Positions 3,445-30,751 are shown, counted from the stretch's first letter. The stretch is DNA of 64,000 nucleotides from an uncultured Thermoplasmata archaeon (GCA_964585175.1 CAZPCW010000001.1:12314-76313), one strand, 5' to 3'. Notes: generated by a model from the sequence alone, not told the origin. Numbers and translations: made by a program.

Positions 3445-4803
3445 TCATGAACTATGGACGCTTTCACCTGAAACGTTTTCTGCGGCTTCCTTGATCGCTT
3501 CTGAATACGTTGGATGCGGATGGATCATCTCGCCCAGCTCATCTGCTTTCATATCTTTTTCCATAGCCGCAGAACACTCCATTATTATGTCGGTAGCGCC
3601 GGGACAGGCGAGATGAGCTCCCAATATATTATTTTCCGAATCGGACACTATCTTCGCAAACCCCATCCTTTTGCCCGTTGAAGAACCTCTTCCCGTAGCG
3701 GATATGGGGAACTTACCAACCCTAATCTCTCCTTTTTCGTTTTCAGCTTCTTCTTCCGTTAAGCCTATACTAGCCATTTCAGGATGGGTATATATCCCAG
3801 CTGGTATGTATGACCCGGAGAAACCTCTCGTTTCTTCGTCTAACATATCCTTTACGGCTATATCAGCCTGTTTAAAGGCAGCGTGAGCTAGCATCGCCTT
3901 TCCATTAACATCTCCAATAGCATAGACTCCGTCAACATTAGTTTCCATCTTATCGTTGACTTCGATCTCTCCATTTTTCCCGATTATATTTACTTCACAA
4001 TCCGGAGGAGTCGGTTTTCTACCTACAGCGCATAATACTTTTTCGACTTCAACTTCTTTTTCAGTTTCGCCCTCGATCTGGACTTTTACCGGATCTTTCC
4101 TCTCTACATCGGTCACTTTCGACCCAGTGTGGAATTTTATCCTTTTACGTTTCATCATCTTTTCAGCAGTTTCGCTCAAATCTTCATCCATATTAGGTAA
4201 CAATCTATCGAGTAATTCAACTATTATAACTTCAGACCCTAAAGAAGAGTAGGTATATGCCATCTCCAATCCTATATAACCTCCTCCAATTATCAAGAGA
4301 GAATCGGGAATTTCCTCAAGCGAAAGAGCCCCCTTACTTGAAATTACCGAGTTTCCATCGATTTTTATATCTGGAAGAGATATAGGTTCTGAACCCGTAG
4401 CTATGATCATATTGTCGGACTCTATAATCTCATCATCTACTTTAACTTCGTTTGAACTTATTACTTCTGCTTCCCCTTTAATGACTTCGATATCGTGTTT
4501 CTCGAATAGATTTTTTATAGCTTTTCTAGACATCTTTACAGCTCTTTCTTTTTTAGACATCACTTTTTCAAAATCGACTCCGTTAAATTCAGCTTTGATA
4601 CCTTCCCTTTTCGCGCCTTTTATGTTTTCGATTGTTCCTGCCGTAGAGAGCATAGCTTTTGAAGGTATACATCCATGGTTAGTACAGACCCCTCCGATCA
4701 CGTCTTCCTCAATCACTTTGACATCCATACCTCTTTTTGAAGCCAAAATAGACGCCACATATCCTCCCGGTCCAGTTCCTATAACAGTCAAACTCTTTCC
4801 CAT
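3445..4803 (-). CDS. lpdA: Dihydrolipoyl dehydrogenase (E3, pyridine nucleotide-disulfide oxidoreductase)
   Basis: Redox-active disulfide motif GGVCTNHGCIPSK, FAD/NAD Rossmann signatures (VIGTGPGGY, IIGGGYIGLE) and the C-terminal dimerisation motif THPEMASIGLTEEEA. The likely true start is the internal Met of MGKSLTVIG at 4801-4803, with a TATA-like TATATAAATAT about 30 nt upstream. The ORF-track start at 4860 is probably over-extended. Confidence 0.8.
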   Translation of the reverse strand: MGKSLTVIGTGPGGYVASILASKRGMDVKVIEEDVIGGVCTNHGCIPSKAMLSTAGTIENIKGAKREGIKAEFNGVDFEKVMSKKERAVKMSRKAIKNLFEKHDIEVIKGEAEVISSNEVKVDDEIIESDNMIIATGSEPISLPDIKIDGNSVISSKGALSLEEIPDSLLIIGGGYIGLEMAYTYSSLGSEVIIVELLDRLLPNMDEDLSETAEKMMKRKRIKFHTGSKVTDVERKDPVKVQIEGETEKEVEVEKVLCAVGRKPTPPDCEVNIIGKNGEIEVNDKMETNVDGVYAIGDVNGKAMLAHAAFKQADIAVKDMLDEETRGFSGSYIPAGIYTHPEMASIGLTEEEAENEKGEIRVGKFPISATGRGSSTGKRMGFAKIVSDSENNILGAHLACPGATDIIMECSAAMEKDMKADELGEMIHPHPTYSEAIKEAAENVSGESVHSS

Positions 4804-9197: not shown

Positions 9198-9320
9198 AAC
9201 CGGTACGATACATATACATGGTCAAAATAAAGTTTTTTATCTAATTCGAATCAAATCCCGTTATCATCGAGGATAATTAGAAGTGAATATTTATAGTGAT
9301 ATGAAGGGTATTTACCATAG

Positions 9321-9656
9321 ATGATGAGATCAAAAAACACTCACGAAAAAATACGCATACTCCAAAACTCGGTCTCAAAAAAGATATTGAGTGCCTGCTC
9401 AAACGAACCGAAATCTGTAACGGAGATCAGCAAAATTCAGGGTATTCCACTTGCAAAATGTTATCGTATGGTGACTGAACTTGAAGAAAAGGGTTACATC
9501 GAAGTCGCTCAAAAGCTCCTAACAAACGGAAAAGAGGTCTGTCTTTATAAAACTATGATAGATTTGAAATTTATCAGTCATGGTGATGGAAAAGAGACAC
9601 TCAAGGTGGATTTAGAAGATATAAGAGAAAAAGATCATAAACCCTCCACTGGATAA
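9321..9656 (+). CDS. Small winged-helix (ArsR/TrmB-like) transcriptional regulator
   Basis: 111 aa. The HTH-like segment KSVTEISKIQGIPLAKCYRMVTELEEKGYIEV is followed by a beta-wing. Confidence 0.5.
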   Translation: MMRSKNTHEKIRILQNSVSKKILSACSNEPKSVTEISKIQGIPLAKCYRMVTELEEKGYIEVAQKLLTNGKEVCLYKTMIDLKFISHGDGKETLKVDLEDIREKDHKPSTG

Positions 9657-12131: not shown

Positions 12132-12248
12132 AAAAAGTCAACTTCTTCATTTTTGATTTTCAAATCCTATTATCAAAACGGATAACAATACTAGAAAAAT
12201 AAAGATGGAATAACCCTGGGAGGGTTGTGGGAAATAATTTCTATTTTT

Positions 12249-12851
12249 CTAAAGGTGCATTATATCTTTGTGGTACACGGAAGGAGTCACTAAAGTCTCT
12301 ATCGTACTTGCTCCATGTTTTGGAGTGAACTGTATATTCATCTCGGACTGTGGACCGAGGTTAAATCCTACTTTAGTGGTGTTGACTGTTACCTGTAGTG
12401 TAGTACCACTAGCGATTAATGGATTATCTTCAGCGTCGAACTCGCCTTCAGGATCCATAAGGGCTTCCGCTGTATAGTTGTGCTCACTAGTTTCCGTTGC
12501 ATTGTATTCTAAAGCTGTTTGATTATTTCCGTCATCGACGTGTATCAATAGGTTTTCAAGATTTTGAGGTGGTGTGCCGGGTCCAACTCCTATATTGAAA
12601 TGTATTTTTCTTAGATCCGTTCCGTTATTGTCTCTAATTCCGAGGATCGACCTTACCTTGATGTAAGTCGAGACCTCGGCCATCGCTTCTTCCGCGGACT
12701 GTTCGGCCTGCTGTTTTAACATCGTCGCTGTTCGGATGAAAACACCTGCTGACACTGCAGACACTAGAACTATCGCTATAAAGATCATCAGGGTTCCCAC
12801 ACCCATCATAGCGTTTTCGTCTTCTTCGGTATTCCTTTTTATACGCCTCAT
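12249..12851 (-). CDS. arlB: Archaellin (ArlB/FlaB family), divergent paralog 1
   Basis: Class III signal peptide plus hydrophobic N-terminus MRRIKRNTEEDENAMMGVGTLMIFIAIVLVSAVSAGVF and the archaellin C-terminal beta-domain ending QFTPKHGASTIETLVTPSVY. Confidence 0.8.
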   Translation of the reverse strand: MRRIKRNTEEDENAMMGVGTLMIFIAIVLVSAVSAGVFIRTATMLKQQAEQSAEEAMAEVSTYIKVRSILGIRDNNGTDLRKIHFNIGVGPGTPPQNLENLLIHVDDGNNQTALEYNATETSEHNYTAEALMDPEGEFDAEDNPLIASGTTLQVTVNTTKVGFNLGPQSEMNIQFTPKHGASTIETLVTPSVYHKDIMHL

Positions 12852-13552
12852 AAATTATCCGCCTCTTAGACACCCGGTCAAGGGCAATTTCGAACAGGCG
12901 CAATCAGTTCCTGTTCTCGTTATGAAATATCATTATCGATATAAATAGTAGTTTCGAAAGTGGTATCATTCTTGATAAAAAACACAAATTATCATCTTTG
13001 AAAATCAATATCGAAGGTAAATGATTCAAGAATCTATTTCATTTTGATTTTTCATCCGGGTCATTATCAATATTGAAAATACAGCAATATGTTTATTTAC
13101 TATGATGTAATAATCATATTTGATAACATGTCCCTAGGATCCCAGGATTCTGTGGATTCTTCGGTCCTGGAATTTGAAAAGTTTCTTGGAATTGGATGGG
13201 AACCTATTTCGGTCAGGATGGAAAGAACGAAGAAAGGACCTAATCACTTGGAACAAACGATAACGATCTCCTGCATTCGAAGGAAACAGGCGGTCGAAGG
13301 CGAAAAGCAGTTCTGTGGGCGGTCTAATCTTCGTTTGGAGTTTTTGATGGAAGATGGAAAAAGTTCTTCCACACAGGATTAAAAACCTCTTTTCTCTTTA
13401 TTTTTGTGCCTTATTTGTTTCATGAAAATCATTTTTGATTTTAAGTAGTGAAAATGTTATTTAGATAGAAAGTATCTTTTCTATCTTAAAGATATAAAAT
13501 ACTAATAGTATTAAAAATAATAAGAAAATCAGTAAGATACAAATACCACTTT

Positions 13553-14047
13553 TTGTCTTATGTAATATTGATGTCAAAGAAAAACATCAAGGTGAGCGAA
13601 GTAGTTTATGATAGACTTGTAGCTGAAAAAGAGGGAAATGAGAGTTTTGACGACACTTTGAGAAGGATACTGGAACTTTCCCCGGACATCCAGGATTTAG
13701 CGGCATATTATCCGGATGAGATGAGAGATATGTCGAAGGAGATAGTAGATTTTATTTTCCAGATGGATGATTTCAAAAGGAACGTGAATAGGGGAAGTGA
13801 ATGTGATACGTTAAAATTCATACCGGAAGATTCCGACTTGGCTGTCGCCCAGATACAGTTTTGGGAGGACAGTTTGAAGATAATGTACAGGAACAAGAAC
13901 GGAGATATGGATTGGATAACTTCTCTCGTTGTAGGGAACGATAAAGATACGAATTTCGGTTACGATCTCGATGGTGAATTCGACGAGTTAAAGGAGGAAA
14001 TCAAAAGAAAAATAAAAGGTGCAATAAGAAAATGGGCCGGTTCATGA
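13553..14047 (+). CDS. Hypothetical protein with an N-terminal CopG/RHH antitoxin-like domain (COG1753-like)
   Basis: KNIKVSEVVYDRLVAEKEGNESFDDTLRRILE resembles the small archaeal antitoxin-like family (motif KtItVsdEvYekL...g.eSFSdvI.rLLe). The likely start is the internal Met at 13571. A further 110 aa downstream are acidic and of unknown function. The gene sits inside the archaellin array on the opposite strand. Confidence 0.35.
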   Translation: MSYVILMSKKNIKVSEVVYDRLVAEKEGNESFDDTLRRILELSPDIQDLAAYYPDEMRDMSKEIVDFIFQMDDFKRNVNRGSECDTLKFIPEDSDLAVAQIQFWEDSLKIMYRNKNGDMDWITSLVVGNDKDTNFGYDLDGEFDELKEEIKRKIKGAIRKWAGS

Positions 14048-14313: not shown

Positions 14314-14936
14314 TTATAGATCTACCATCCGCTCAGTTATAACAGGCGGTGTGACTACTTCTTCATAGGTCGGCGTGCCGTGTTTTGGTATGATCCTTAT
14401 GTTGAGCGGTTCCTGTGTTCCTACTGATCCATCTATCGCATTGTCTAGATTGACGGTGATATTGTACAAGTCCCCAGATTCTACGTACTGGTCCTCACTA
14501 CCATCCTGCTCTTTGATAACTTCCCAATCATAGTGTGTGTTTGTGTTCACTGGACTGGTAGCAGAGCCATCAGTACCATCGGGTCCCTGTAGGTTTACTT
14601 CCTGAGTGTTGTTCTGCACTTCGATTACAGTTTGATTGAGGTCCTGCCCTGTGGCTCCGGCTGCTAAACTCACCTTCAGATATATCGCATCTATTTCACC
14701 ATCAGCGGTGCCAGTGGCGGCATCCAAATCTTGACCGTAAATCTCCTGCACCTTGAAAGAGCTGGACACTTCTCTGATCGCTTCGTCACCTGTCCTCTCA
14801 GCCTGCTACTGCAGCTGATTAGCGGTATCGATGAGTACACTCGCGGCTACAGCCGCCACTAAGACCATCGCTATGAACACTATGAGCGTGCCTACGCCCA
14901 TCGCACCTTTGTCGTCTTCTCTCTTTATCCGCTCAT
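14314..14936 (-). pseudogene. arlB: Archaellin (arlB) pseudogene with an in-frame TAG nonsense codon and a start-proximal frameshift
   Basis: Homologous along its whole length to the neighbouring archaellins. It keeps the promoter, the SD (GGAGG) and an ATG at 14934-14936, but a 1-nt deletion near codons 2-6 puts the ATG out of frame (ATG AGC GGA TAA). Where the intact paralogs have CAG in [10 protein letters not shown], this copy has TAG at 14806-14808 (minus strand). The ORF track recovers only the 151-aa distal fragment 14314..14769. Confidence 0.7.
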
Positions 14937-15116
14937 ATTTGGTATTTTCCTCCTATTCGAATACAGCATGATAATCATCACTGTTTCTCAATATATAATT
15001 AAAGAATTAATTATACTGATCCATATTCAACAGCGATAATCCAAGGTGATAAAACTTAGACACATTTCTATGATCTAAGAAATTTATTATTTGAGCTTAG
15101 AAAAGACAAAAATAGA

Positions 15117-15145
15117 AAAAAGTAGAAAGGGTTTTTATTTCATTT
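15117..15145 (-). terminator. Conserved archaellin 3' element AAAAACCCTTTCTAC followed by a T-tract (transcript sense)
   Basis: The plus-strand motif AGTAGAAAGGGTTTTT recurs within 30 nt after the stop of six archaellin copies (about 14288, 15121, 15917, 16688, 17523, 18306). Oligo-U tracts follow on the mRNA. Confidence 0.5.
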
Positions 15146-15760
15146 TTACAGATCTACTAAGGTGCTTGTTATCGTTGGCGGAGTGACTACCTGCTCGTAA
15201 GTCGGCGTGCCGTGCTTCGGTATTATGTTTATATCGAGTTGTTCTTGTGTTCCTATTGTTCCACCCAGATCATTTTGTAGATTGATAGTGATCTTGTAAA
15301 GATCACCACTTTCGACATACTGGTCTTTATCGCCGTCCTGTTCTTTGACAACTGACCAGTCATAGTGGATTTCGTCAAGATTCTCACTAGCGGCTCCATT
15401 TCCGTTTCCATCGGCTCCTTGTAAATTGACTTCTGCACTCTTATTCTGTAACTGCACTATCGTCTGATTGAGATCTTGTCCGGTCGCACCAGCTGCTAGT
15501 CCTATTTTCAAAGTTATATTCTGGATTTCGTTTGCATCAGTAGATTCATTCGTTTCTCCAAAAACATCCTGTACCTGGAACGAGCTGGACACTTCTCTGA
15601 TCGCTTCGTCACCTGTTCTCTCTGCCTGCTGCTGTAGCTGGTTCGCGGTATCGATGAGTACACTTGCCGCAACAGCGGCCACCAAGACCATCGCTATGAA
15701 CACTATGAGCGTGCCTACGCCCATCGCACCTTTGTCGTCTTCTCTTTTTATCCTTCGCAT
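15146..15760 (-). CDS. arlB: Archaellin (ArlB/FlaB), major-type paralog
   Basis: [57 protein letters not shown] is a class III signal peptide (KGA|MGVGTL) followed by the conserved hydrophobic helix. The C-terminus is [27 protein letters not shown]. An AGGAGA SD lies 8 nt upstream. Confidence 0.85.
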   Translation of the reverse strand: MRRIKREDDKGAMGVGTLIVFIAMVLVAAVAASVLIDTANQLQQQAERTGDEAIREVSSSFQVQDVFGETNESTDANEIQNITLKIGLAAGATGQDLNQTIVQLQNKSAEVNLQGADGNGNGAASENLDEIHYDWSVVKEQDGDKDQYVESGDLYKITINLQNDLGGTIGTQEQLDINIIPKHGTPTYEQVVTPPTITSTLVDL

Positions 15761-15786
15761 AGTTATTATCTCCTTTCGGATACAGC

Positions 15787-15818
15787 ATGATAATCATCTC
15801 TTTTTATCATTATATAAT
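15787..15818 (-). promoter_or_regulatory. Archaellin promoter/leader: TATA box ATTATATAAT (15809-15818), palindrome ATGATAATCAT (15787-15797), SD AGGAGA (15769-15774)
   Basis: The same arrangement is conserved upstream of the copies starting at 14936, 16531 and 17308, with the palindrome at 14968-14978, 16558-16568 and 17334-17344. A variant TCGATAATCAC sits at 18163-18175. Confidence 0.6.
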
Positions 15819-15940
15819 TTGATAAACAATTATGCTGACTCATATTCAATAGTGATAATCCGAGATGATAAAACACAGATAAACATCTACAATATAAAAA
15901 TCTAAAATAGAAAAAAGTAGAAAGGGTTTTTAGTTCATTT

Positions 15941-16531
15941 CTACAGATCAACTAGCTCGGTGGTTATCGTTGGCGGAGTGACTACCTCTTCGTAGGTAGG
16001 TGTTCCGTGTTTTGGTATTATATTTATGTCTAGATCCGCTTGGGTTCCTAATTGGCCTACCGTGTTTTCAAGATCGATAGTTATATTATAGAGATCGCCG
16101 GATTCTACGTACTGGTCTGAACTACCTTCTTGTTCTATGATCGAACTCCAAGAATAGTTATTTGAACCCGGACCTTCTCCCTCTGCACCTGCAGCAACTA
16201 AGTTTTGTTCACTCGTGTTAGTTTGTATTTGAATAACGGTTTGATTGAGGTCCTGTCCCGTAGCTCCTGCTGCTAAACCAACCTTCAATGTCAGTTCATT
16301 GAGTTCACCACTGTCAGAAGTATCCCTACCGAACACGTCCTGCACCTGGAACGAGCTGGATACTTCCCTGATCGCTTCGTCACCTGTTCTCTCTGCCTGC
16401 TGCTGTAGCTGGTTCGCAGTATCGATAAGTACACTTGCCGCAACAGCGGCCACTAAGACCATCGCTATGAACACTATGAGCGTGCCTACGCCCATCGCAC
16501 CTTTGTCGTCTTCTCTCTTTATCCTTCGCAT
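15941..16531 (-). CDS. arlB: Archaellin (ArlB/FlaB), major-type paralog
   Basis: The first 70 codons and the upstream 170 bp are nucleotide-identical to the 15146..15760 copy. The central variable domain differs. Confidence 0.85.
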
Positions 16532-16711
16532 AGTTATTATCTCCTTTCGGATACAGCATGATAATCATCTCTTTTTATCATTATATAATTTGATAAACAA
16601 TTATGCTGACTCATATTCAATAGTGATAATCCGAGATGATAAAACACAGATAAACATCTACAATATAAAAATCTAAAATAGAAAAAAGTAGAAAGGGTTT
16701 TTAGTTCATCT

Positions 16712-17308
16712 CTACAGATCTACTAGCTCGGTGGTTATCGTGGGCGGCGTGACAACTTCTTCGTAGGTCGGTGTTCCGTGTTTCGGTATTATGTTGATGT
16801 CTAAGTCTGCCTGAGTACCTATCGAGTCTATATCAGTTGCACTAAGATCGACCGTTATATTATAGAGATCGCCGGATTCTACGTACTGGTCTGAACTACC
16901 TTCCTGTTCTATAATAGATGTCCATGCATAGTTATTTCCGATAGGATCAGCTCCTTCAGATGTGGCAGCCACCAGATTCACTTCACTTTCATTACTCTGG
17001 ATCTGAATTATGGTTTGATTCAGATCCTGTCCAGTTGCTCCAGCTGCTAGACCTACCTTCAAAGTTATCCTATCAATTTTATGATCACTCGCATCTAAAT
17101 TTCTACCGAACACGTCCTGCACCTTGAAAGAGCTGGACACTTCTCTGATCGCTTCGTCACCTGTTCTCTCTGCCTGCTGCTGTAGCTGGTTCGCGGTATC
17201 GATGAGTACACTTGCCGCAACAGCGGCCACCAAGACCATCGCTATGAACACTATGAGCGTGCCTACGCCCATCGCACCTTTGTCGTCTTCTCTTTTTATC
17301 CGTCTCAT
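16712..17308 (-). CDS. arlB: Archaellin (ArlB/FlaB), major-type paralog
   Basis: Same conserved N-terminus and C-terminus as the neighbouring copies, with a variable central domain containing N-x-S/T sequons. Confidence 0.85.
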
Positions 17309-17545
17309 ATTTTATCTCCTTTCGAATACAGCATGATAATCATCTCTGTTTTTCACTATATAATTTAATAAACAGTTATATCGGAAGGTATTCAATTTTG
17401 ATAATCTTCTTCTATAAAACGACCTTACTTATTCAGAGTGGTCTACCTTTAAAATCAGAATTGGGTTTTTATGATTATTCAAGAAGTCAGGAGATCTAAA
17501 AAGATCTAAAATAAAGTAATTAAAAGAAAGGTTTTTTAAATTAGC

Positions 17546-18136
17546 TTAGAGATCGACTATTTCACTAGTTACCGTAGGAGGTACAACTACTTCTTCATAT
17601 GTAGGTGTCCCGTGTTTCGGTATTATGTTTATATCTAGATTAGCCTGTGTTCCTAAAGATCCTACCGTGTTTTCAAGATCGATGGTTATATTGTAGAGAT
17701 CGCCGGATTCTACGTACTGGTCTGAACTACCTTCTTGTTCTATGATCGAACTCCAGGAATAGTTATTGGATCCCGGACCTTCACCTTCTGCGCCGGCAGC
17801 AACTAAGTTTTCTTCGGTAGTGTTACTCTGAACTTGAATAACAGTCTGGTTAAGATCCTGTCCAGTTGCTCCAGATGAAAGGGCAACTTTTAGGGTTGCT
17901 CTTTCTATTTCATTATCATCATCGATGTTTCTGCCAAATGCATCCTGTATTTTGAACGAGCTAGACACTTCACGTATCGCTTCGTCACCTGTTCTCTCAG
18001 CCTGTTGTTGTAACTGGTTAGCGGTATCGATGAGTACACTTGCGGCTACTGCAGCCACTAAGACCATCGCTATGAACACGATGAGTGTTCCGACGCCCAT
18101 CGCGCCTTTGTCGTCTTCTCTTTTTATTCTTCTCAT
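17546..18136 (-). CDS. arlB: Archaellin (ArlB/FlaB), major-type paralog
   Basis: The ORF-track start at 18187 is over-extended. The true start is the Met of [11 protein letters not shown] at 18134-18136, which has an AGGAGA SD 8 nt upstream like its siblings. Confidence 0.8.
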
Positions 18137-18330
18137 GGTTATTATCTCCTTTCGGATACAGCATCGATAATCACCTTCCTTATTCATTATATATATTCGC
18201 TAGTGATTATCTCTCAGCGTAAATCAATCTTGATAACGGGAGTTGATAGTCTATGAAAACGAAGATTACTCTTATATATTGAAGAAGCCTGTAAAAAAGA
18301 TATAAAAAGAAAGGGTTTTTTTTCGGTTAT

Positions 18331-18933
18331 TCACAGATCCACAATCTTTGTGGTTAAAGTAGGCGGCGCCACTAGCTCTTCATATGTGGATGTTCCATGC
18401 TTTGGTATGATCTGTAAATCTACTTCGGACTGTGTTGTCAGGTTGTCTATACTATCTATTTCTGTCAGATTTATACTGAGTGCATATAGATCACCTGGTT
18501 CAACAAATGAATTTGTGTTATCACTTTCTTGTGTTATTATTGGTTCCCAGTAGTAATGAGTTGCGTTTGCTTCTGGATTTTCTGCTGCACCTTGAAGATT
18601 TGTTTCACCGCTAGCAGTCATGATCTGAATCACTGTTTGGTTCAAGTCCTGAGACGTAGCACCAGCCGCTAGTCCGATTTTCATCGTTACATTGACTATC
18701 ACTCTTTCTCCATCCGACATATCTGTTTCACCGAATGTGTCCTGCACTTGGAAAGAGCTGGATACTTCCCTGATCGCTTCGTCACCTGTTCTCTCTGCCT
18801 GCTGCTGTAGTTTGTTCGCGGTATCTATAAGTACACTGGCTGCCACTGCTGATACTAGTACCATGGCTATGAATATGATGAGCGTGCCTACGCCCATCGC
18901 GCCTTTGTCGTCTTCTCTTTTTATCCTTCTCAT
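18331..18933 (-). CDS. arlB: Archaellin (ArlB/FlaB) paralog
   Basis: [57 protein letters not shown]; the central domain is more diverged. Confidence 0.8.
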   Translation of the reverse strand: MRRIKREDDKGAMGVGTLIIFIAMVLVSAVAASVLIDTANKLQQQAERTGDEAIREVSSSFQVQDTFGETDMSDGERVIVNVTMKIGLAAGATSQDLNQTVIQIMTASGETNLQGAAENPEANATHYYWEPIITQESDNTNSFVEPGDLYALSINLTEIDSIDNLTTQSEVDLQIIPKHGTSTYEELVAPPTLTTKIVDL

Positions 18934-19225
18934 AGTTACTATCTCCTTTCGGATACTCTAGTTTAATCACCTTCCTAATTGATTATATAAATTCGGAACC
19001 AATTATCCTTTAAGTTTTCAAATATCAATTATATAAGGAGGTTATAACGATAAAGAATCACGCGCGTTTACAAACTATGTTTATTAAGCTAAAAAGTCAA
19101 TTGTAATTATCAAGCACAATAACATCGAGTAAACGCTTATATCTGATAAGAATATTAATTTAATAGTCTTAGCAGGCCTATTACAGATTACAACCCTTTT
19201 TTCCCTGAAGGCTATTATCTAGAGA

Positions 19226-19259
19226 GATAATCACGACATTAAATATAATATGATAATCG
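19226..19259 (+). promoter_or_regulatory. Promoter of the divergent arl accessory operon: TATA TTAAATATAATA (19239-19250) flanked by GATAATCAC (19226-19234) and TGATAATCG (19251-19259)
   Basis: The TATA box lies about 30 nt upstream of the ATG at 19275 (leaderless or short leader). The GATAATC core is the same as in the archaellin leader palindromes. Confidence 0.45.
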
Positions 19260-19274
19260 AAACTGTTTATCATA

Positions 19275-19952
19275 ATGCTTGAGGACTTAAGAGAGACAGA
19301 GCTATTTCAAGGGTCTTCATCGTTCAGACGGGCCCGGTTGTCCGATGACGAATCTGCTTCCACAGGAGTCAGTTCATTGATGCTTCTGATCGCCACGATA
19401 ATGATCACGGCGATAGTGGCCGGGGTCCTGGTAGATACGGTGACCAAGCTCCAAAATCAGTCGGAGAAAACCGCTGACCAGGCTATATCGGACGTGAGCA
19501 CGGGGATGAACACTCTTTCATTGACAGGAGATAGAAAGGAAAACGGGAATTCGAGTAAACCAACATCAAATGAAATAGAGGTGGTGGAAGTGATAGTTAG
19601 ACTTCAGTCGGGAAGCAATCCTGTAGATATGGATGACGTCGTGACTATAATTAACGACGGTAACACAACAAGTGAATTGCTCCATAATCCAGATACGAAT
19701 GATCCGACGGGAGCTGATGATACTAATTTCACTACAAAAGTTCTTAGAGATCCTGAAGGGGACTACGCGGATTCCAATGTGATGAATCAGGGTACTTTGG
19801 TAAAGATCTACATAGACGCTAACCTTACCGGTCTTCAACTGGACACCAATACCCCTGTTGAAATCAAAATTATACCAAATACCGGCCAATCCACTCAGAT
19901 ATCCTTCACCACTCCTTCAGTCTATGCTTCAAGGAAGGTGAATCTGAAATGA
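19275..19952 (+). CDS. Archaellin-like protein (divergent ArlB/ArlA-type) heading the arl accessory operon
   Basis: Archaellin-type hydrophobic N-terminus GVSSLMLLIATIMITAIVAGVLVDTVTKLQNQSEKTADQAISDV and archaellin-like C-terminus EIKIIPNTGQSTQISFTTPSVYA. Its central domain (DDGN.T...DPEGDY) resembles paralog 1 at 12249 more than the five major copies. Confidence 0.6.
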   Translation: MLEDLRETELFQGSSSFRRARLSDDESASTGVSSLMLLIATIMITAIVAGVLVDTVTKLQNQSEKTADQAISDVSTGMNTLSLTGDRKENGNSSKPTSNEIEVVEVIVRLQSGSNPVDMDDVVTIINDGNTTSELLHNPDTNDPTGADDTNFTTKVLRDPEGDYADSNVMNQGTLVKIYIDANLTGLQLDTNTPVEIKIIPNTGQSTQISFTTPSVYASRKVNLK

Positions 19953-20014: not shown

Positions 20015-23000
20015 ATGGTAGACTTCGGAAAGTTGTTGGGAAAAGACAAAGATGAAGAAGAGGAAGATGAAGCCGAAGAAGAATCGGAAGGCGACATAGA
20101 TGATATTATAGACGGCGACGAAGGAGAGGGGGGGATGGGTCCGATGGGCGCGGATATGGACGAAGGTGAAGGTATCGGACCGCAGGGTGGTGGAGAAGGA
20201 GGTATGGGCGTGGCGCCCGACGTTAGGGACGATATTGACAGAAATAGAGATGACATCAGAGAAGTGGAAAATAAAGTAGAAACCATGAATGACACGGTAG
20301 ACGATATAGAGGAAAGAGTAAATGATCTTGAAGAAGATATAAGTCAATTATTAGATGTTTATGAGATGGTGACCGCTGAATTCAATCCTTTCTTAGAAGA
20401 AGGCGGCGGTTTAAGCGGAGGAGGTGGATCCTCTGAAGAAGGAGGCGGAGATGACTGGGATAGTATGGATTTCGGTGGATCACCTGAAGAAGAAAGCGAA
20501 GAAGAAAGTTCTGAAGGATCACCTCTTGATGAACTTGTAGAACCCCCTGAAGAGGAGCAAGAAGAGGAAGCGCCCGAAATGCCAGATATCGGATCCCCAG
20601 GTGAAGAAGAAGCCCCTGAAGCTCCGACGGAAACACCTCCTCAAGATCAATCTCAGGAACCAAAAAGTCCTGAACCCGCTCAGCCGGAGACCCCACAACA
20701 GCCTGCACAAGAACAACAGGCTCCACCTCAAACAGAACAAACCCAAGAACCCGTTCAACAACCCTCGACACAGCAAGAAGAATCTCAACAATCTCCTCAA
20801 CCCGCACAAGAACAGGTTCAGGAGCCTACCCAACAACCACAAACCCCTACCCAAGAACCTCAGCAACCGGCTCAAAAACAGCAAACCTCTCCACAGCAAC
20901 AACCAACACCTTCTCAAGAATCCAAACAACCGGCTCAAGAGCCTGAAAGGTCTACTGAACCTCAGCTATCTAAAGAACCAGGACCCGTCATGGAAGAGTC
21001 AGTTGAAACCATGGAAGAGGCACCAGGAGGTGAAATAACTGATGCCGAAGAACTACTAGATGAACTTGAAGGTGGGACTATGTATTTACTCGAATCTAGT
21101 GATGAGGATTTTCCATATGAAATATTTCAAGCTCTAGTTAAAGACAGATCTGGATTATGCCTAGTTAGAAACCACCCCGATGATATAAAAGACAATTATG
21201 ACATGACAGGAGTGGAATACGGGTGGCTTTCATCCTCTGGTGAAGACGTTGCTATTGGACCTGACGAATTAGATCTATTGGGCTTGACTATAGAGAGATT
21301 CATTTCGGAAGATGATGGAATAATACTCCTTGATGGGATTGGTTATCTTCTTTCGAACAATCCCGAATCTACTGTTATCCATTTCATACAATCCCTGCAG
21401 GATCAGATAACAGTCAAATCTACAATATTCTTGATCGTAGTCGATCCAGAGGATATGGAGCAGAAGAACATAGATCTGATCAAGAATGAACTTGATCTAG
21501 AAGTCAAAAAGAAAGAGGAGCTCTCTAAGGATACTGGAAGGAGCATCAGTGGAGGAGAAGAAAACCTAGTCTCAAAAGTAAGAAGAATGATGCAGTTCCT
21601 GGAAGAACAGGAGAAAAATCTTCAGGAGAGAGTCGATGAAATCAATCAGAAGACCATACCAGAATTTTCAGAGAGTATGGATTCGTCTGTAGTAAAAGAA
21701 GCTATCGAAGATCTGAAAAAAGAAAACAGAAGGCTTAAAGAGGAACTAGATAGATTGAAAGAAGAAGAATCGGAAGAGGAGATAGATACTTCTCCAGAAA
21801 GAGCTAAAGACATAAAGGAAACGATGGATCTATTCAAAGAAGAAAAAGAAACCCTTGAGGAGATAAAAGAACTTGAAGAGGAAGAAGAGGTGGAAGAAGA
21901 AGTCGGTGAAGAACCTTCTGCTATAATCGAAGCTATACAAGATCTCGAAGAAGAGATCGATAAGTTGAAGGATGAGATGAAAGAGCTCAAAGAAGGTGCT
22001 CCAGAAGAAAGTGAAATTGTCGAAAAAGAAGAAACTATAGAGGGTATTGATGAAAGTTTGAAAGGAGAAACGGAAGTTGAAGTGGAACCAGAACCTGAAC
22101 AGGAAATCAAAATCGAAGAACCAGAAGAATCAGTTGAAGAGGAATCGATGGATGAAATCACCGATATACCCGGAAATATAGACGAAAAAGTCGATGTTGA
22201 AATCGAGGAAGAAACAGGAATAGAAGAAGAAAAAGAAGCTGAGGAATCGGGTCTTCCGGAAATAGAAGAAGAGGAAACTGAAGAGCTCGAAGTAGAAGAA
22301 CCGGGGATGGAAGAATCAGAAGCGGAAGAAAACAAAGAGGAAAAAACGGTTGAAGAAAAAAGCGAAGAAAAACCAGAAGAAGAAACTTCCATCTTGAAGG
22401 AAATGATACAGGGTCTAGAAAAAGAAATAGATGGTCTAAGGAACGAAATCCAGGATCTAAAACAGGGTGAAGAGGAAACTGAAGCTATTGGTGAAGAAAC
22501 CGGCGAGAAGATTGAAGAGATCGAGGAAAAAGATCTAGCGAGTGAAGCAGCAGAGAAAGCTGGTGAGATCGTTGAAGAGGTAGAAGAAGAGCTGGGCGAA
22601 GATATGGTCGATGAGGATGTACAGGAGGAAAGCGAAGAGGAAGAAAAAGAGATGGAAGAAGTGATGGAAGTGATCGAAAAGGAAGAACAATTGATGGAAG
22701 AACCTGAAAAAGTTAAAGAAAAAGTAGGATCTGAGGAAGTGGAAAGCCCAGTCCAGACTGAAGGATCAGAAGAAGAGAAAGAAGAGGAACTCGAATCGGA
22801 TCATTTAACTGAAGACGCTGAAAAAGGGATTGAAGAGGACAAAGAAGTGATGCCAGAGCGCGAAGAGCCGATAGAGGAAAGTGAGAAAGAGACAGAAGAT
22901 AAAGAAATAGAGCCCGAAAAGAAAGAGGAAACAGTCGAGGAGCCAAAAATAGATGAAAAAGAAGAAGGAACTATCTATTCTGAGGAAGAAATACAGTTAG

Positions 23001-23458
23001 AGCCAGAGTCGGAGATATCTGGTGATATAGCATCTGATAGTGATGTCCAGATCGAGAAAGATGTGAAAGTTGACGGATCTTTGAGTGCAGAAGAGGATAT
23101 CAAAATACACGAAAAAACTGAGATACAGGGAGATATAAAATCTGATTCTGGTGACGTAAATATAGGTGAAGAGTGTAAGGTGGGAGGAGAGATCAATGGA
23201 AAGAAAGTGTTAATCTCTAAAGGAAGTGAAGTGGAAGATATTGAAGCAGAAGAAAAAGTGATCTTGGAAGAAAATACGAAAGTGAATAAAGTTTTGTGTG
23301 AAGGTGACGTGAAGCTGTCAGAAAACGTCCAGATCGAAGAAGGAATTGAGTACGGTGGCCAATTACTATTTGAAGGAGATAAGATAAGTATCGGTGATCT
23401 GGTTCATCCGATAAATGAAGACGAAGAGGTGGTGAAAGAAAGATGGGCTTCTCAGTAG
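20015..23458 (+). CDS. Giant acidic multidomain protein: ArlC/D/E-like N-terminus, PQ-rich linker, DUF835-like (KaiC-lobe-like) domain, a long Glu-rich coiled coil of about 450 aa, and a bactofilin-like beta-helical C-terminus
   Basis: It occupies the position of arlCDE, between the archaellin-like gene and arlF. N-terminal coiled coil ending LLDVYEMVTAEFNPF, which I read as ArlD/E-family-like. A P/Q/E low-complexity block around 20580-20990. Block GLCLVRNHPDDIKDNYDMTGVEYGWLSSSGEDVAIGPDELDLLGLTIERFISEDDGIILLDGIGYLLSNNPESTVIHFIQSLQDQITVKSTIFLIVVDP, which I read as DUF835-like. An extremely E/K-rich region with heptad-like periodicity. C-terminal 150 aa built from the repeat D/E-V-x-I-x-G-D-I/V (SGDIASDSDVQIEKDVKVDGSLSAEEDIKIHEKTEIQGDIKSDSGDVNIGEECKVGGEINGKKVLISKGSEVEDIE...), which is bactofilin-like. 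The 3' end overlaps the arlF start by 16 nt. Confidence 0.55.
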   Translation: MVDFGKLLGKDKDEEEEDEAEEESEGDIDDIIDGDEGEGGMGPMGADMDEGEGIGPQGGGEGGMGVAPDVRDDIDRNRDDIREVENKVETMNDTVDDIEERVNDLEEDISQLLDVYEMVTAEFNPFLEEGGGLSGGGGSSEEGGGDDWDSMDFGGSPEEESEEESSEGSPLDELVEPPEEEQEEEAPEMPDIGSPGEEEAPEAPTETPPQDQSQEPKSPEPAQPETPQQPAQEQQAPPQTEQTQEPVQQPSTQQEESQQSPQPAQEQVQEPTQQPQTPTQEPQQPAQKQQTSPQQQPTPSQESKQPAQEPERSTEPQLSKEPGPVMEESVETMEEAPGGEITDAEELLDELEGGTMYLLESSDEDFPYEIFQALVKDRSGLCLVRNHPDDIKDNYDMTGVEYGWLSSSGEDVAIGPDELDLLGLTIERFISEDDGIILLDGIGYLLSNNPESTVIHFIQSLQDQITVKSTIFLIVVDPEDMEQKNIDLIKNELDLEVKKKEELSKDTGRSISGGEENLVSKVRRMMQFLEEQEKNLQERVDEINQKTIPEFSESMDSSVVKEAIEDLKKENRRLKEELDRLKEEESEEEIDTSPERAKDIKETMDLFKEEKETLEEIKELEEEEEVEEEVGEEPSAIIEAIQDLEEEIDKLKDEMKELKEGAPEESEIVEKEETIEGIDESLKGETEVEVEPEPEQEIKIEEPEESVEEESMDEITDIPGNIDEKVDVEIEEETGIEEEKEAEESGLPEIEEEETEELEVEEPGMEESEAEENKEEKTVEEKSEEKPEEETSILKEMIQGLEKEIDGLRNEIQDLKQGEEETEAIGEETGEKIEEIEEKDLASEAAEKAGEIVEEVEEELGEDMVDEDVQEESEEEEKEMEEVMEVIEKEEQLMEEPEKVKEKVGSEEVESPVQTEGSEEEKEEELESDHLTEDAEKGIEEDKEVMPEREEPIEESEKETEDKEIEPEKKEETVEEPKIDEKEEGTIYSEEEIQLEPESEISGDIASDSDVQIEKDVKVDGSLSAEEDIKIHEKTEIQGDIKSDSGDVNIGEECKVGGEINGKKVLISKGSEVEDIEAEEKVILEENTKVNKVLCEGDVKLSENVQIEEGIEYGGQLLFEGDKISIGDLVHPINEDEEVVKERWASQ

Positions 23459-29140: not shown

Positions 29141-30751
29141 ATGGAGAGGAAGTTAAAAGCCCATATGAAAAAAAATCCCTTTTTAGGGAGCTACATAAAA
29201 AGGGTCAGAAGAGAAGTAGGTGTGCCAAAATTTAGAGAGGAATGTCCAGATTGGGGAGACGTGAGGGATGATTTCAATATAATGTATCCCATAACAGATC
29301 TAGTTTATATCCATTGTTACGTTTCCGAGGACGAAGAGAAGCATTATATCGCGGTAGAACCCCCACTAAATGAAGAAAGGCAGGAAAAACTTGAGAAGGC
29401 TAAGAAGTATATCTATAGAGAGGCGGATTACGAGAAGGAGATCGAATACAGAGAAGAATTGAGGGAAATGATCCATGATATTTTTGACAGGATCGTGGGT
29501 GAAGGAGGAGGTTTCTTTTCGAAACTCCAAGGTAGGACATTAGACGTAGATGATGATGAGATACCTATCTTGAAATATTATGTTGTGAGAGACCTAGTAG
29601 ATTATGGAGTTCTTGATCCACTGATCAACGATCCTAATATCGAAGATATAAATTGTGTGGGAACAGAGCCTCTTACTATTATTCACCAAACATTTGGAAG
29701 GATAAAAACGAACATCTCATTTGACTCTGAATTTGAATTAGATGAATATCTGAAAAGACTAAGCCAAAGAATAGGCAGTCCGGTCGGTGAAGCTCATCCC
29801 ATCGTGGATACGGCTATGCCGGACGGATCTAGAATAAACATCGTTTATCCAGAAGATGTTTCTACCAAAGGCAGATCATTCACGATACGAAAATTTCCAG
29901 ATGATCCTATCTCTATAACCAATCTTATTGAATGGAATACTTTATCCCCAGAATTGGCTGGATATATATGGCTCTGTTTGGAAAACTCCATGTCCATCTT
30001 CATATGCGGAGAAACAGCTTCGGGTAAAACAACTACTCTGAACGCTTTTCTCCCTTTCATACACCTTGATAGTAAACTTTACAGCGTGGAAGACACCCCT
30101 GAAGTGCAGCCACCACACGATAATTGGCAGCAACTCATAGTCAGAGAAGAGGGAGCAGAAGATGAGCAGGTCGGTCAGTTCGATCTTTTGAGAGCAGCCC
30201 TCCGTTCAAGGCCAGATTATATAGTTCCCAGTGAGATAAGAGGAGAAGAAGGTAGAGTGGCGTTTCAGGGCATGCAGACAGGCCATCCTGTCATATCGAC
30301 TTTCCATGCCGACTCCATACACAGGATGATCCAGCGACTAACCGGCGAGCCTATCAGGATCCCGATAACTTTCATAGATAATCTGAACGTAGCGGTGATA
30401 CAAGACAGCTTTAGAACCAAAGGGGCCGTTTTGAGAAGAGTAACTGAGGTTGGAGAGATCATGGGTTACTCTGAAGAACAGGATGGAGTGATGATGAGGG
30501 TGGTATTCAAAAGAAATGAACAGGAAGATGAGCTGGAATTCGAAGGTATGTACAACAGCTTTATTCTAGAGGATAAGATCGCACAGATCCAAGGTTACGA
30601 CGATACTAGAAAAATCTACGATGTGATGGAAGAAAGAGCCCAGTTCTTAGAAGATCTCACGAGAAAAGGTATCTACGATTACGATAAGGTGGCGCAGCTG
30701 ATAGACGAATACAGGAAAGGCGGTAGAGAAAATCTTTCAATAAGGCTTTAA
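29141..30751 (+). CDS. Second ArlI/FlaI-like secretion-family ATPase (paralog)
   Basis: Walker A motif CGETASGKTTTLNAFLPFI, His box STFHADS, and the same domain order as ArlI (about 45% identity by eye: MYPITDLVYIHCY against IYPIGDPIFVHVY). It sits 7 nt after arlJ with no adjacent second TadC-like gene. Confidence 0.7.
   Translation: MERKLKAHMKKNPFLGSYIKRVRREVGVPKFREECPDWGDVRDDFNIMYPITDLVYIHCYVSEDEEKHYIAVEPPLNEERQEKLEKAKKYIYREADYEKEIEYREELREMIHDIFDRIVGEGGGFFSKLQGRTLDVDDDEIPILKYYVVRDLVDYGVLDPLINDPNIEDINCVGTEPLTIIHQTFGRIKTNISFDSEFELDEYLKRLSQRIGSPVGEAHPIVDTAMPDGSRINIVYPEDVSTKGRSFTIRKFPDDPISITNLIEWNTLSPELAGYIWLCLENSMSIFICGETASGKTTTLNAFLPFIHLDSKLYSVEDTPEVQPPHDNWQQLIVREEGAEDEQVGQFDLLRAALRSRPDYIVPSEIRGEEGRVAFQGMQTGHPVISTFHADSIHRMIQRLTGEPIRIPITFIDNLNVAVIQDSFRTKGAVLRRVTEVGEIMGYSEEQDGVMMRVVFKRNEQEDELEFEGMYNSFILEDKIAQIQGYDDTRKIYDVMEERAQFLEDLTRKGIYDYDKVAQLIDEYRKGGRENLSIRL

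Follow-up and report, generated by a model that had tools for sequence, protein, structure and literature searches.

The archaellum locus of an uncultured Thermoplasmata-like archaeon, which spans 12.2-30.8 kb of the 64-kb stretch of DNA analyzed here (the window), carries short inverted elements at every one of its archaellin promoters (g0-g6) and at the promoter of the divergent arl operon. We report that these elements are related to a dyad, TTATC-N6-GATAA (N, any nucleotide), which is concentrated at archaellum genes, is conserved in related genomes and matches the binding motif of CsmR, an archaellum regulator of Haloferax volcanii. An 11-bp palindrome repeated ahead of four of the archaellin genes, the feature singled out by the initial annotation of this DNA, is probably one of several operator sites through which a small, dimeric, CsmR/Phr-like winged helix-turn-helix (wHTH) protein would control the archaellum regulon.

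The palindrome is one copy of a recurrent half-site

Read on the plus strand, the palindrome ATGATAATCAT occurs four times in the window and nowhere else; the first three of the starts originally given for it hold, and the fourth lies at 17333 rather than 17334. When up to one mismatch is allowed, 14 matches are found where 3.3 are expected, and none of 100 shuffles of the window reaches 14. Its symmetry is real, although it is that of a 5+1+5 dyad (ATGAT-A-ATCAT) and the palindrome is imperfect. On the coding strand the element reads (A/G)TGATTATCA and lies 12 nt past the TATA 8-mer and about 20 nt ahead of the Shine-Dalgarno (SD) sequence, that is, between the two, as annotated; we refer to this position as site C. 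The variant that had been noticed at 18163 is indeed present, upstream of g5, and a decayed version precedes g6 (see table). Because the promoters of g1-g4, recent tandem paralogues that share most of the segment from TATA box to ATG, have been tandemly duplicated, the four exact copies are not independent, so that function cannot be demonstrated from the window by itself.

The 11-mer is one copy of an 8-9-bp half-site, TGATAATCA. Over the window as a whole GATAATC shows mild enrichment only (29 occurrences versus 20 expected), yet 12 of its 29 copies fall within 1.7 kb of archaellum intergenic DNA. Each of g1-g4 has a further GATAATC some 65 nt upstream of site C (15035, 15854, 16625, and 17400). 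An inverted GATAATC stands just upstream of the TFB-recognition element (BRE) in g5 and in most promoters of the other genomes described below; in g5 this site B and site C form a 9-bp inverted repeat (GATAATCAC...GTGATTATC) that brackets the TATA box and measures 39 bp from start to start. Further upstream in g5 is a degenerate dyad, site A, with equivalents in g1-g4. At the arl operon, GATAATC flanks the TATA box TAAATATA (19240-19247) on both sides, as had been annotated, with copies at 19226-19232 and 19252-19258, the first of which is the right half of a perfect dyad.

With at most one mismatch, TTATC-N6-GATAA occurs 21 times in the window against 5.96 ± 2.25 expected, a count that 0 of 100 shuffles reach. 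Fourteen of the 21 dyads are intergenic, versus 11% of the window as a whole; 15 fall within 9.2-19.3 kb and none in the che region. Exact dyads number three and start at 9261, 12170, and 19215. The dyad or half-site is separated from the TATA box by 8-9 nt at the arl operon and by 11 nt both at the gene of a small wHTH protein (wHTH111) and at archaellin site B.

CsmR (HVO_1209) of H. volcanii is a wHTH protein of 13 kDa and about 112 aa, the gene of which immediately precedes arlA1/arlA2 (PLoS Genet, June 2026; PMC13286277). Its motif from chromatin immunoprecipitation sequencing (ChIP-seq), the semi-palindromic TATCA(N4)TGATA, was found in 50 of 65 peaks and is followed by a TATA box about 13 nt on, and the peaks include the arlA1, arlCE, and cheY promoters (PMC13286277). 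TATCA-N4-TGATA is TATC-N6-GATA, with the same spacing as the dyad described here; the extended right half-site TGATAA(T/C)C is found in both systems, the listed CsmR sites including the right half-sites TGATAATC and TGATTATC (PMC13286277), and in both the motif lies some 10-13 nt upstream of the TATA box. The window dyads match instances in the S10 table of the same study (PMC13286277), whose primer 13705 carries TGATAATC 6 nt before the csmR start of H. volcanii. On plasmid pNG100 of Haloarcula marismortui, the arlA2 promoter (L018, about 3917-3934) has a perfect TTATC-N6-GATAA, GTTATCATGCTCGATAAC, 14 nt before TATATA; a second, weaker dyad lies further upstream in that promoter.

The motif is a conserved footprint in related genomes

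Archaellin queries returned three loci from genome contigs and six from metagenome contigs, which marks the lineage as rare; its nearest public relatives are metagenome-assembled genomes (MAGs) labelled 'uncultured Thermoplasmata archaeon'. The archaellins of L001-L003, from genomes, and of L004 and L005, from a metagenome, are 54-65% identical to those of the window, while the remaining loci (L006-L009) encode distant archaellins (30-35% identity) without the motif and are uninformative. We aligned 11 non-redundant archaellin promoters from the window, L001, L003, L004, and L005 over about -105 to +12, an alignment that is gap-free once one inserted base is removed from each of the g5 promoter of the window (W_g5) and L003a. 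Three blocks are invariant in all 11: ATAAT, in site B, about 11 nt upstream of the TATA box; AA..TATATA, which covers BRE and TATA box; and TGATTATCATGCTGTATCCGAA. The spacers between them, including the 12-nt spacer from TATA box to site C, differ at most positions.

Site C has the form (A/G/T)(A/T)GATTATCA, in the same place, in every archaellin promoter of this class in the related genomes; a twelfth copy, at 11630 of L001, sits at the cut end of that locus, so that 12 of 12 promoters of the class, from four related genomes, keep the motif. In a second class, comprising g6 of the window, L001a, L005a, and L002, site B and the leader are kept and the palindrome is absent. TGATAATCA is nearly restricted to archaellum promoters: it is present at those of L001, L003, L004, and L005, and unrelated loci of the related genomes, about 80 kb in all, hold just two copies. 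Conservation extends to the arl operon, the promoter of which in L001 has the dyad TGATTATCGCTAGGGATAATCA followed by an unchanged TATA box and downstream GATAATC, so that all three GATAATC copies are kept. As judged from these alignments, the cross-genome pattern amounts to a phylogenetic footprint, by which plain identity by descent is excluded.

Site C lies at the predicted transcription start

On the coding strand, the archaellin promoters share one layout: a TATA 8-mer, (A/T)(A/T)TATATA; 12 variable nt; (A/G)TGATTATCA; the block TGCTGTATCCGAAAGGAG, which contains the SD; and 6-12 nt before the ATG, with a gap of 8-10 nt between SD block and ATG in most promoters. Archaeal transcription starts about 22-24 nt after the TATA 8-mer, and here the 8-mer ends 22-24 nt before a CA/TG at the 3' edge of site C, where we infer the transcription start site (TSS) of the archaellin genes. 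Because this rule puts the start at the palindrome's 3' edge, site C would be a promoter element and probably spans about -10 to -1 (GATTATC about -9 to -3), over the region that melts and outside the leader. The proposal that a shared dyad serves as a candidate operator holds in essence: the motif is a cis-element common to the archaellum genes and behaves like an operator, being conserved amid varying spacers, recurring as dyads at the arl operon and at a wHTH gene, and nearly absent elsewhere. Its assignment to the archaellin 5' leaders does not agree with the predicted start.

Applied to the arl operon and the wHTH genes, this rule makes both apparently leaderless in two genomes, the ATG following the TATA 8-mer by 25-28 nt with no SD, which supports the TATA assignments. 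The regions concerned lie at 19240-19277 and 9277-9323 in the window and at about 5610-5650 in L001; the archaellin genes, in contrast, are preceded by about 30 nt of leader that includes a strong SD. Contiguous with site C and equally invariant is the leader block GCTGTATCCGAAAGGAG. The leader GTATCCGAAAGGAG is unchanged in 13 of the 16 archaellin promoters compared, palindrome-less ones included, the exceptions being W_g4 and L005c, each with a C to T change, and the pseudogene W_g1, which has one C to T and one A to T change. An upstream open reading frame (ORF) starting from an ATG inside site C was considered and rejected, because L003a and L003b lack this ATG and g5 has it at a shifted position.

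A family of small wHTH proteins carries the dyad at its own promoters

The candidate cognate regulator, wHTH111, is encoded 2.6 kb from g0. Its AlphaFold model (predicted local distance difference test score, pLDDT, 75) shows a wHTH in which a β-hairpin forms the wing, together with two additional β-strands, and the closest solved folds are PH1932 (1ULY, 2CWE) and Phr (2P4W), with Foldseek E = 6e-5 to 7e-4. Homologues of wHTH111 form a tight family of 105-117 aa within a wider superfamily of more than 2,400 representatives at 50% identity (2,429 matches in a profile search). Family members are found beside archaellins in other genomes: between two of them in L003, immediately upstream of one in L004, and one gene downstream of one in L021. 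The last locus (L021 3-3864), from the same MAG as L001, encodes in turn an archaellin, a Roadblock/LC7 protein, the wHTH protein P0005, and a 654-aa DUF835 protein; this MAG has at least three wHTH paralogues (P0005, P0006, and P0015).

The dyad, with at most one mismatch, is present 60-86 nt upstream of the ATG in nine of the ten wHTH-family promoters examined, which represent four independent orthologue groups. A dyad at a family's own promoters is the usual signature of autoregulation, and its presence here implies, at the level of promoter sequence, that the wHTH family is tied to the motif.

On the haloarchaeal side, a 115-aa wHTH protein (L020) matches the wHTH family profile over its full length with 64 bits. 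The CsmR termini, MESDRTLS... and ...KITQD, which we derived from primers, occur in no protein from the wHTH-family or haloarchaeal-like profile searches, nor among the best 150 of the 2,429 matches. The best Haloferax match, P0042, adjoins cetZ rather than archaellins and is not CsmR, and a search of archaellins against plasmids with tblastn found no plasmid-borne csmR neighbor.

A repressor bracketing the TATA box and its alternatives

We propose that the recognition unit would be the half-site TGATAA(T/C)C, two inverted copies of which would make the dyad TTATC-N6-GATAA. Full dyads just upstream of BRE and TATA box, at the arl operon and at the regulator gene, would in the latter case provide autoregulation. 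The archaellin promoters would be more elaborate, with site A as a degenerate dyad about 70 nt upstream, site B as a half-site upstream of BRE, and site C as an inverted half-site between TATA box and start site. Protein at B and C would bracket the TBP/TFB site and cover the DNA that RNA polymerase opens, and on site C it would block recruitment of the polymerase; most likely, these very strong archaellin promoters would be kept repressed, pending a signal that frees the regulator. From the position of the sites and their likeness to the CsmR motif, repression of the archaellin promoters by a CsmR-like wHTH protein appears most likely.

Several observations weigh against this proposal. The che region (30.7-46 kb) has no intergenic dyad with two or fewer mismatches, and che is a CsmR target in Haloferax. 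We considered a GTATC downstream and the spacer upstream of site C as an N6 partner half-site, neither of which is convincing, and site C is therefore treated as a lone half-site; it could instead belong to one long conserved core-promoter/5' untranslated region (UTR) element. wHTH111 is divergent, with 23-32% identity to the rest of its family, and several wHTH paralogues lie away from archaellum genes, so that wHTH111 is one candidate among the family members for a protein acting at archaellum promoters. Its likeness to CsmR is one of size, fold, and associated motif. Finally, deletion of csmR raises arl transcripts about 8-16 fold, yet the cells are non-motile (PMC13286277), suggesting that the sign of regulation is not simple.

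The contiguity of site C with the invariant leader, together with the missing N6 partner, makes the strongest rival a basal one, in which site C would serve as initiator and AT-rich proximal promoter element, continuous with the conserved 5'UTR; it would make archaellin promoters and mRNAs very strong, be conserved on that account, and be bound only by TFB and RNA polymerase. Its place at the predicted -10 to -1, the first region to melt, would also fit such a role, which we nonetheless consider unlikely: copies of the 7-9-mer also stand at site B, between -20 and -14 in the arl operon and in the wHTH dyads, a distribution that a position-specific element would not have; g6-type promoters keep TATA box and leader without site C; and no other promoter in the window has a site C. 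Neutral identity by descent, after recent archaellin duplication or gene conversion, would account for the identical upstream regions of g2 and g3, the TATA-to-ATG segment largely shared by g1-g4 and the motif retained by the g1 pseudogene, but it is largely refuted, and very improbable, given that the motif is invariant across four genomes whose archaellins are only 54-65% identical and whose adjacent spacers mostly differ, and given its presence at the non-paralogous arl-operon and wHTH promoters.

Two further explanations, both raised at the outset, are a leader RNA and an activator. The transcribed palindrome could act as a hairpin or protein-binding site affecting translation or stability, and indeed it lies between TATA box and SD, ahead of a highly conserved leader that can form a 3-bp UCC-GAAA-GGA tetraloop hairpin overlapping the SD, though a weak one (-2.7 kcal/mol, z = -1.8). 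This would, however, place the function in a palindrome that the predicted TSS adjoins at its 3' edge and that at the arl operon has copies ahead of a leaderless start. An AT-rich stem of 5 bp cannot close on a 1-nt loop, the palindrome's best fold (-0.4 kcal/mol) is like that of shuffled sequences, whole leaders score z values of -0.8 to +0.4 against shuffled sequence, and there is no Rfam match; we give an RNA role very little credence. An EarA-like or ArnR-like activator is just as hard to sustain. EarA, the euryarchaeal wHTH regulator of the archaellum operon in Methanococcus maripaludis and Pyrococcus furiosus, has sites just upstream of BRE, four direct 6-bp TACATA boxes 9-11 bp from it, and activates a weak-BRE promoter; earA is always paired with a methyltransferase gene. 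Sites A and B do lie upstream of BRE, the usual position for an archaeal activator, but no archaellum intergenic region has a TACATA (within 12-19.4 kb there are only two reverse-strand TATGTA matches, in coding sequence), and no pair of wHTH and methyltransferase genes came up when the ORFs on either side of the arl and che clusters were scanned with Pfam, CheR being the only methyltransferase there. Moreover, BRE (CGAA) and TATA box are near consensus here, and site C is in a repressor-type position. The activator is thus highly improbable, and since motif sequence, spacing, and position match CsmR instead, the regulator is most likely of the CsmR kind and not of the EarA or ArnR kind.

Organization of the archaellum locus

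The seven archaellin genes lie on the minus strand, divergent from the plus-strand arl operon, which starts at 19275 and encodes an archaellin-like protein, a 1147-aa FlaC/DUF835/bactofilin fusion, ArlF-like, ArlG-like, and ArlH-like proteins, ArlI, ArlJ, and a second T2SSE ATPase. The fusion (20015-23458) takes the position of ArlC/D/E and has two ORFs as its counterpart in L001, and the second T2SSE-type ATPase follows arlJ at 29141-30751. Chemotaxis genes lie downstream, from about 32.7 kb.

In the pseudogene g1, the frame is shifted by a 1-nt deletion directly after ATGAG, and at about 14811 a CAG has become an in-frame TAG that breaks the conserved QLQQQAE segment; the g1 promoter, palindrome included, is intact. 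The upstream regions of g2 and g3 (15761-15990 and 16532-16760) are identical over more than 200 nt, which take in the end of the preceding gene, and this identity indicates, from the sequences themselves, a very recent tandem duplication or gene conversion.

Within the archaellin array, 13553-14047 (plus strand) encodes a protein of 164 aa that begins with a DNA-binding domain of the VapB-antitoxin type, possibly another DNA-binding protein of the archaellum locus. The small ORF at 13089-13382 (plus strand) has no Pfam match and a 44% identical counterpart in L001 (5919-6146). In both genomes it is divergent from an archaellum gene with dyad-rich intergenic DNA in between, which in L001 holds a perfect dyad, TTATCAAAATTGATAA; the small ORF is probably a further member of the regulon. 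The exact dyad at 12170-12185 has no gene start nearby and might serve an RNA that is antisense or lacks annotation; an RNA of Haloferax begins just downstream of arlA2.

Table. Operator-like sites, archaellin genes, leaders, and candidate regulator in the window.
Feature	Position	Strand	Description
Site C of g1	14968-14978	minus	coding strand ATGATTATCAT; 12 nt downstream of TATA 8-mer 14992-14999
Site C of g2	15787-15797	minus	TATA 8-mer 15811-15818
Site C of g3	16558-16568	minus	promoter identical to that of g2
Site C of g4	17333-17343	minus	TATA 8-mer 17357-17364
Site C variant of g5	18163-18174	minus	ATCGATAATCAC; coding strand GTGATTATCGAT
Decayed site C of g6	18962-18970	minus	GTGATTAAA
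Site B of g5	18205-18211	minus	GATAATC on coding strand, 11 nt upstream of TATA box
Site A of g5	18221-18236	minus	degenerate dyad; coding strand TTATCAAGATTGATTT
Site A equivalents, g1	15037-15052, 15024-15039		
Site A equivalent, g2	15856-15871		
Site A equivalent, g3	16627-16642		
Site A equivalent, g4	17389-17404		
arl-operon dyad	19215-19232	plus	perfect dyad TTATCTAGAGAGATAA; right half is GATAATC 19226-19232
GATAATC downstream of arl-operon TATA box	19252-19258	plus	adjoins TATA box; about -20 to -14
wHTH-gene dyad	9261-9276	plus	perfect dyad TTATCATCGAGGATAA; 60 nt upstream of ATG, 11 nt upstream of TATA box
One-mismatch dyads (three)	12963, 12989, 13064 (12963-13079)		intergenic, between g0 and ORF 13089-13382
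Exact dyad	12170-12185		TTATCAAAACGGATAA; between stop codons of convergent CARDB gene (end 12131) and g0 (end 12249)
wHTH111	9321-9656	plus	candidate cognate regulator; 111-aa winged-helix protein; Pfam TrmB/HTH_24, Phr/ArsR-like fold
Archaellin g0	12249-12851	minus	ATG 12851
Archaellin g1	14314-14936	minus	pseudogene; ATG 14936
Archaellin g2	15146-15760	minus	ATG 15760
Archaellin g3	15941-16531	minus	ATG 16531
Archaellin g4	16712-17308	minus	ATG 17308
Archaellin g5	17546-18136	minus	ATG 18136
Archaellin g6		minus	ATG 18933
Archaellin leaders	14948-14964, 15767-15783, 16538-16554, 17313-17329, 18143-18159, 18940-18956	minus	

Comparison with known archaeal regulators

TrmB and TrmBL1 recognize the Thermococcales glycolytic motif (TGM), TATCAC-N5-GTGATA. 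They resemble the system described here in their TATC/GATA half-sites, their TrmB-type wHTH, and the way in which position relative to the TATA box sets activation or repression. Their TATC-GATA gap, however, is 9 nt and not 6, TrmB proteins measure about 340 aa and include a sugar-binding domain, and the regulon is one of sugar metabolism; we rejected the TGM on spacing. Phr, the heat-shock repressor of Pyrococcus furiosus, is a dimeric wHTH protein; its target is a palindrome that overlaps the TSS, and it blocks recruitment of RNA polymerase, as MDR1 and LrpA also do. Blocking at the TSS is the mechanism proposed here for site C, and Phr (2P4W) and PH1932 (1ULY) are the closest solved folds to wHTH111, although identity is only 19-23% and Phr differs in its size (about 200 aa), long C-terminal dimerization helix, target sequence, and heat-shock genes.

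To our knowledge, euryarchaeal archaellum regulation is known from two systems only, EarA and, since 2026, CsmR. The parallels with CsmR go beyond the motif: archaellin and arl-operon promoters are targeted in both cases, a small wHTH protein (about 112 aa) is encoded near archaellin genes in both, and Phr (2P4W), noted as a structural neighbor of CsmR (PMC13286277), is also one of wHTH111. csmR has been reported mainly in Halobacteria (PMC13286277), whereas the lineage studied here is Thermoplasmata-like. It also differs in the extra inverted half-site (site C) between TATA box and TSS, by which the TATA box is bracketed; in having up to three or four half-sites per archaellin promoter; in che promoters without a dyad in the window; and in having several wHTH paralogues per genome with the dyad at their own promoters.

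If our proposal is correct, CsmR-type operators at archaellum promoters would extend the CsmR system well beyond haloarchaea, and the same dyad at the promoters of the linked wHTH family itself strengthens the case. Repression at the TSS is suggested as the mechanism, which is not new in kind, and the natural operator variants on offer comprise a full dyad and single half-sites, with positions on either side of the TATA box. We raise more tentatively the possibility, which falls short of being probable, that TTATC-N6-GATAA and a small Phr-like wHTH protein form an ancient archaellum control module of Halobacteria and this Thermoplasmata-like lineage, in which the TATA-bracketing sites would be an elaboration that clamps the archaellin promoters. 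Half-sites at about -45 and -6 and an upstream dyad would then allow cooperative binding or looping by several paralogues, and members of the Thermoplasmata-like wHTH subfamily would autoregulate through the same dyad. Taken together, our comparisons suggest that the element is best filed as a non-haloarchaeal instance of CsmR-type archaellum control, with the TATA-bracketing half-sites as its distinctive feature.

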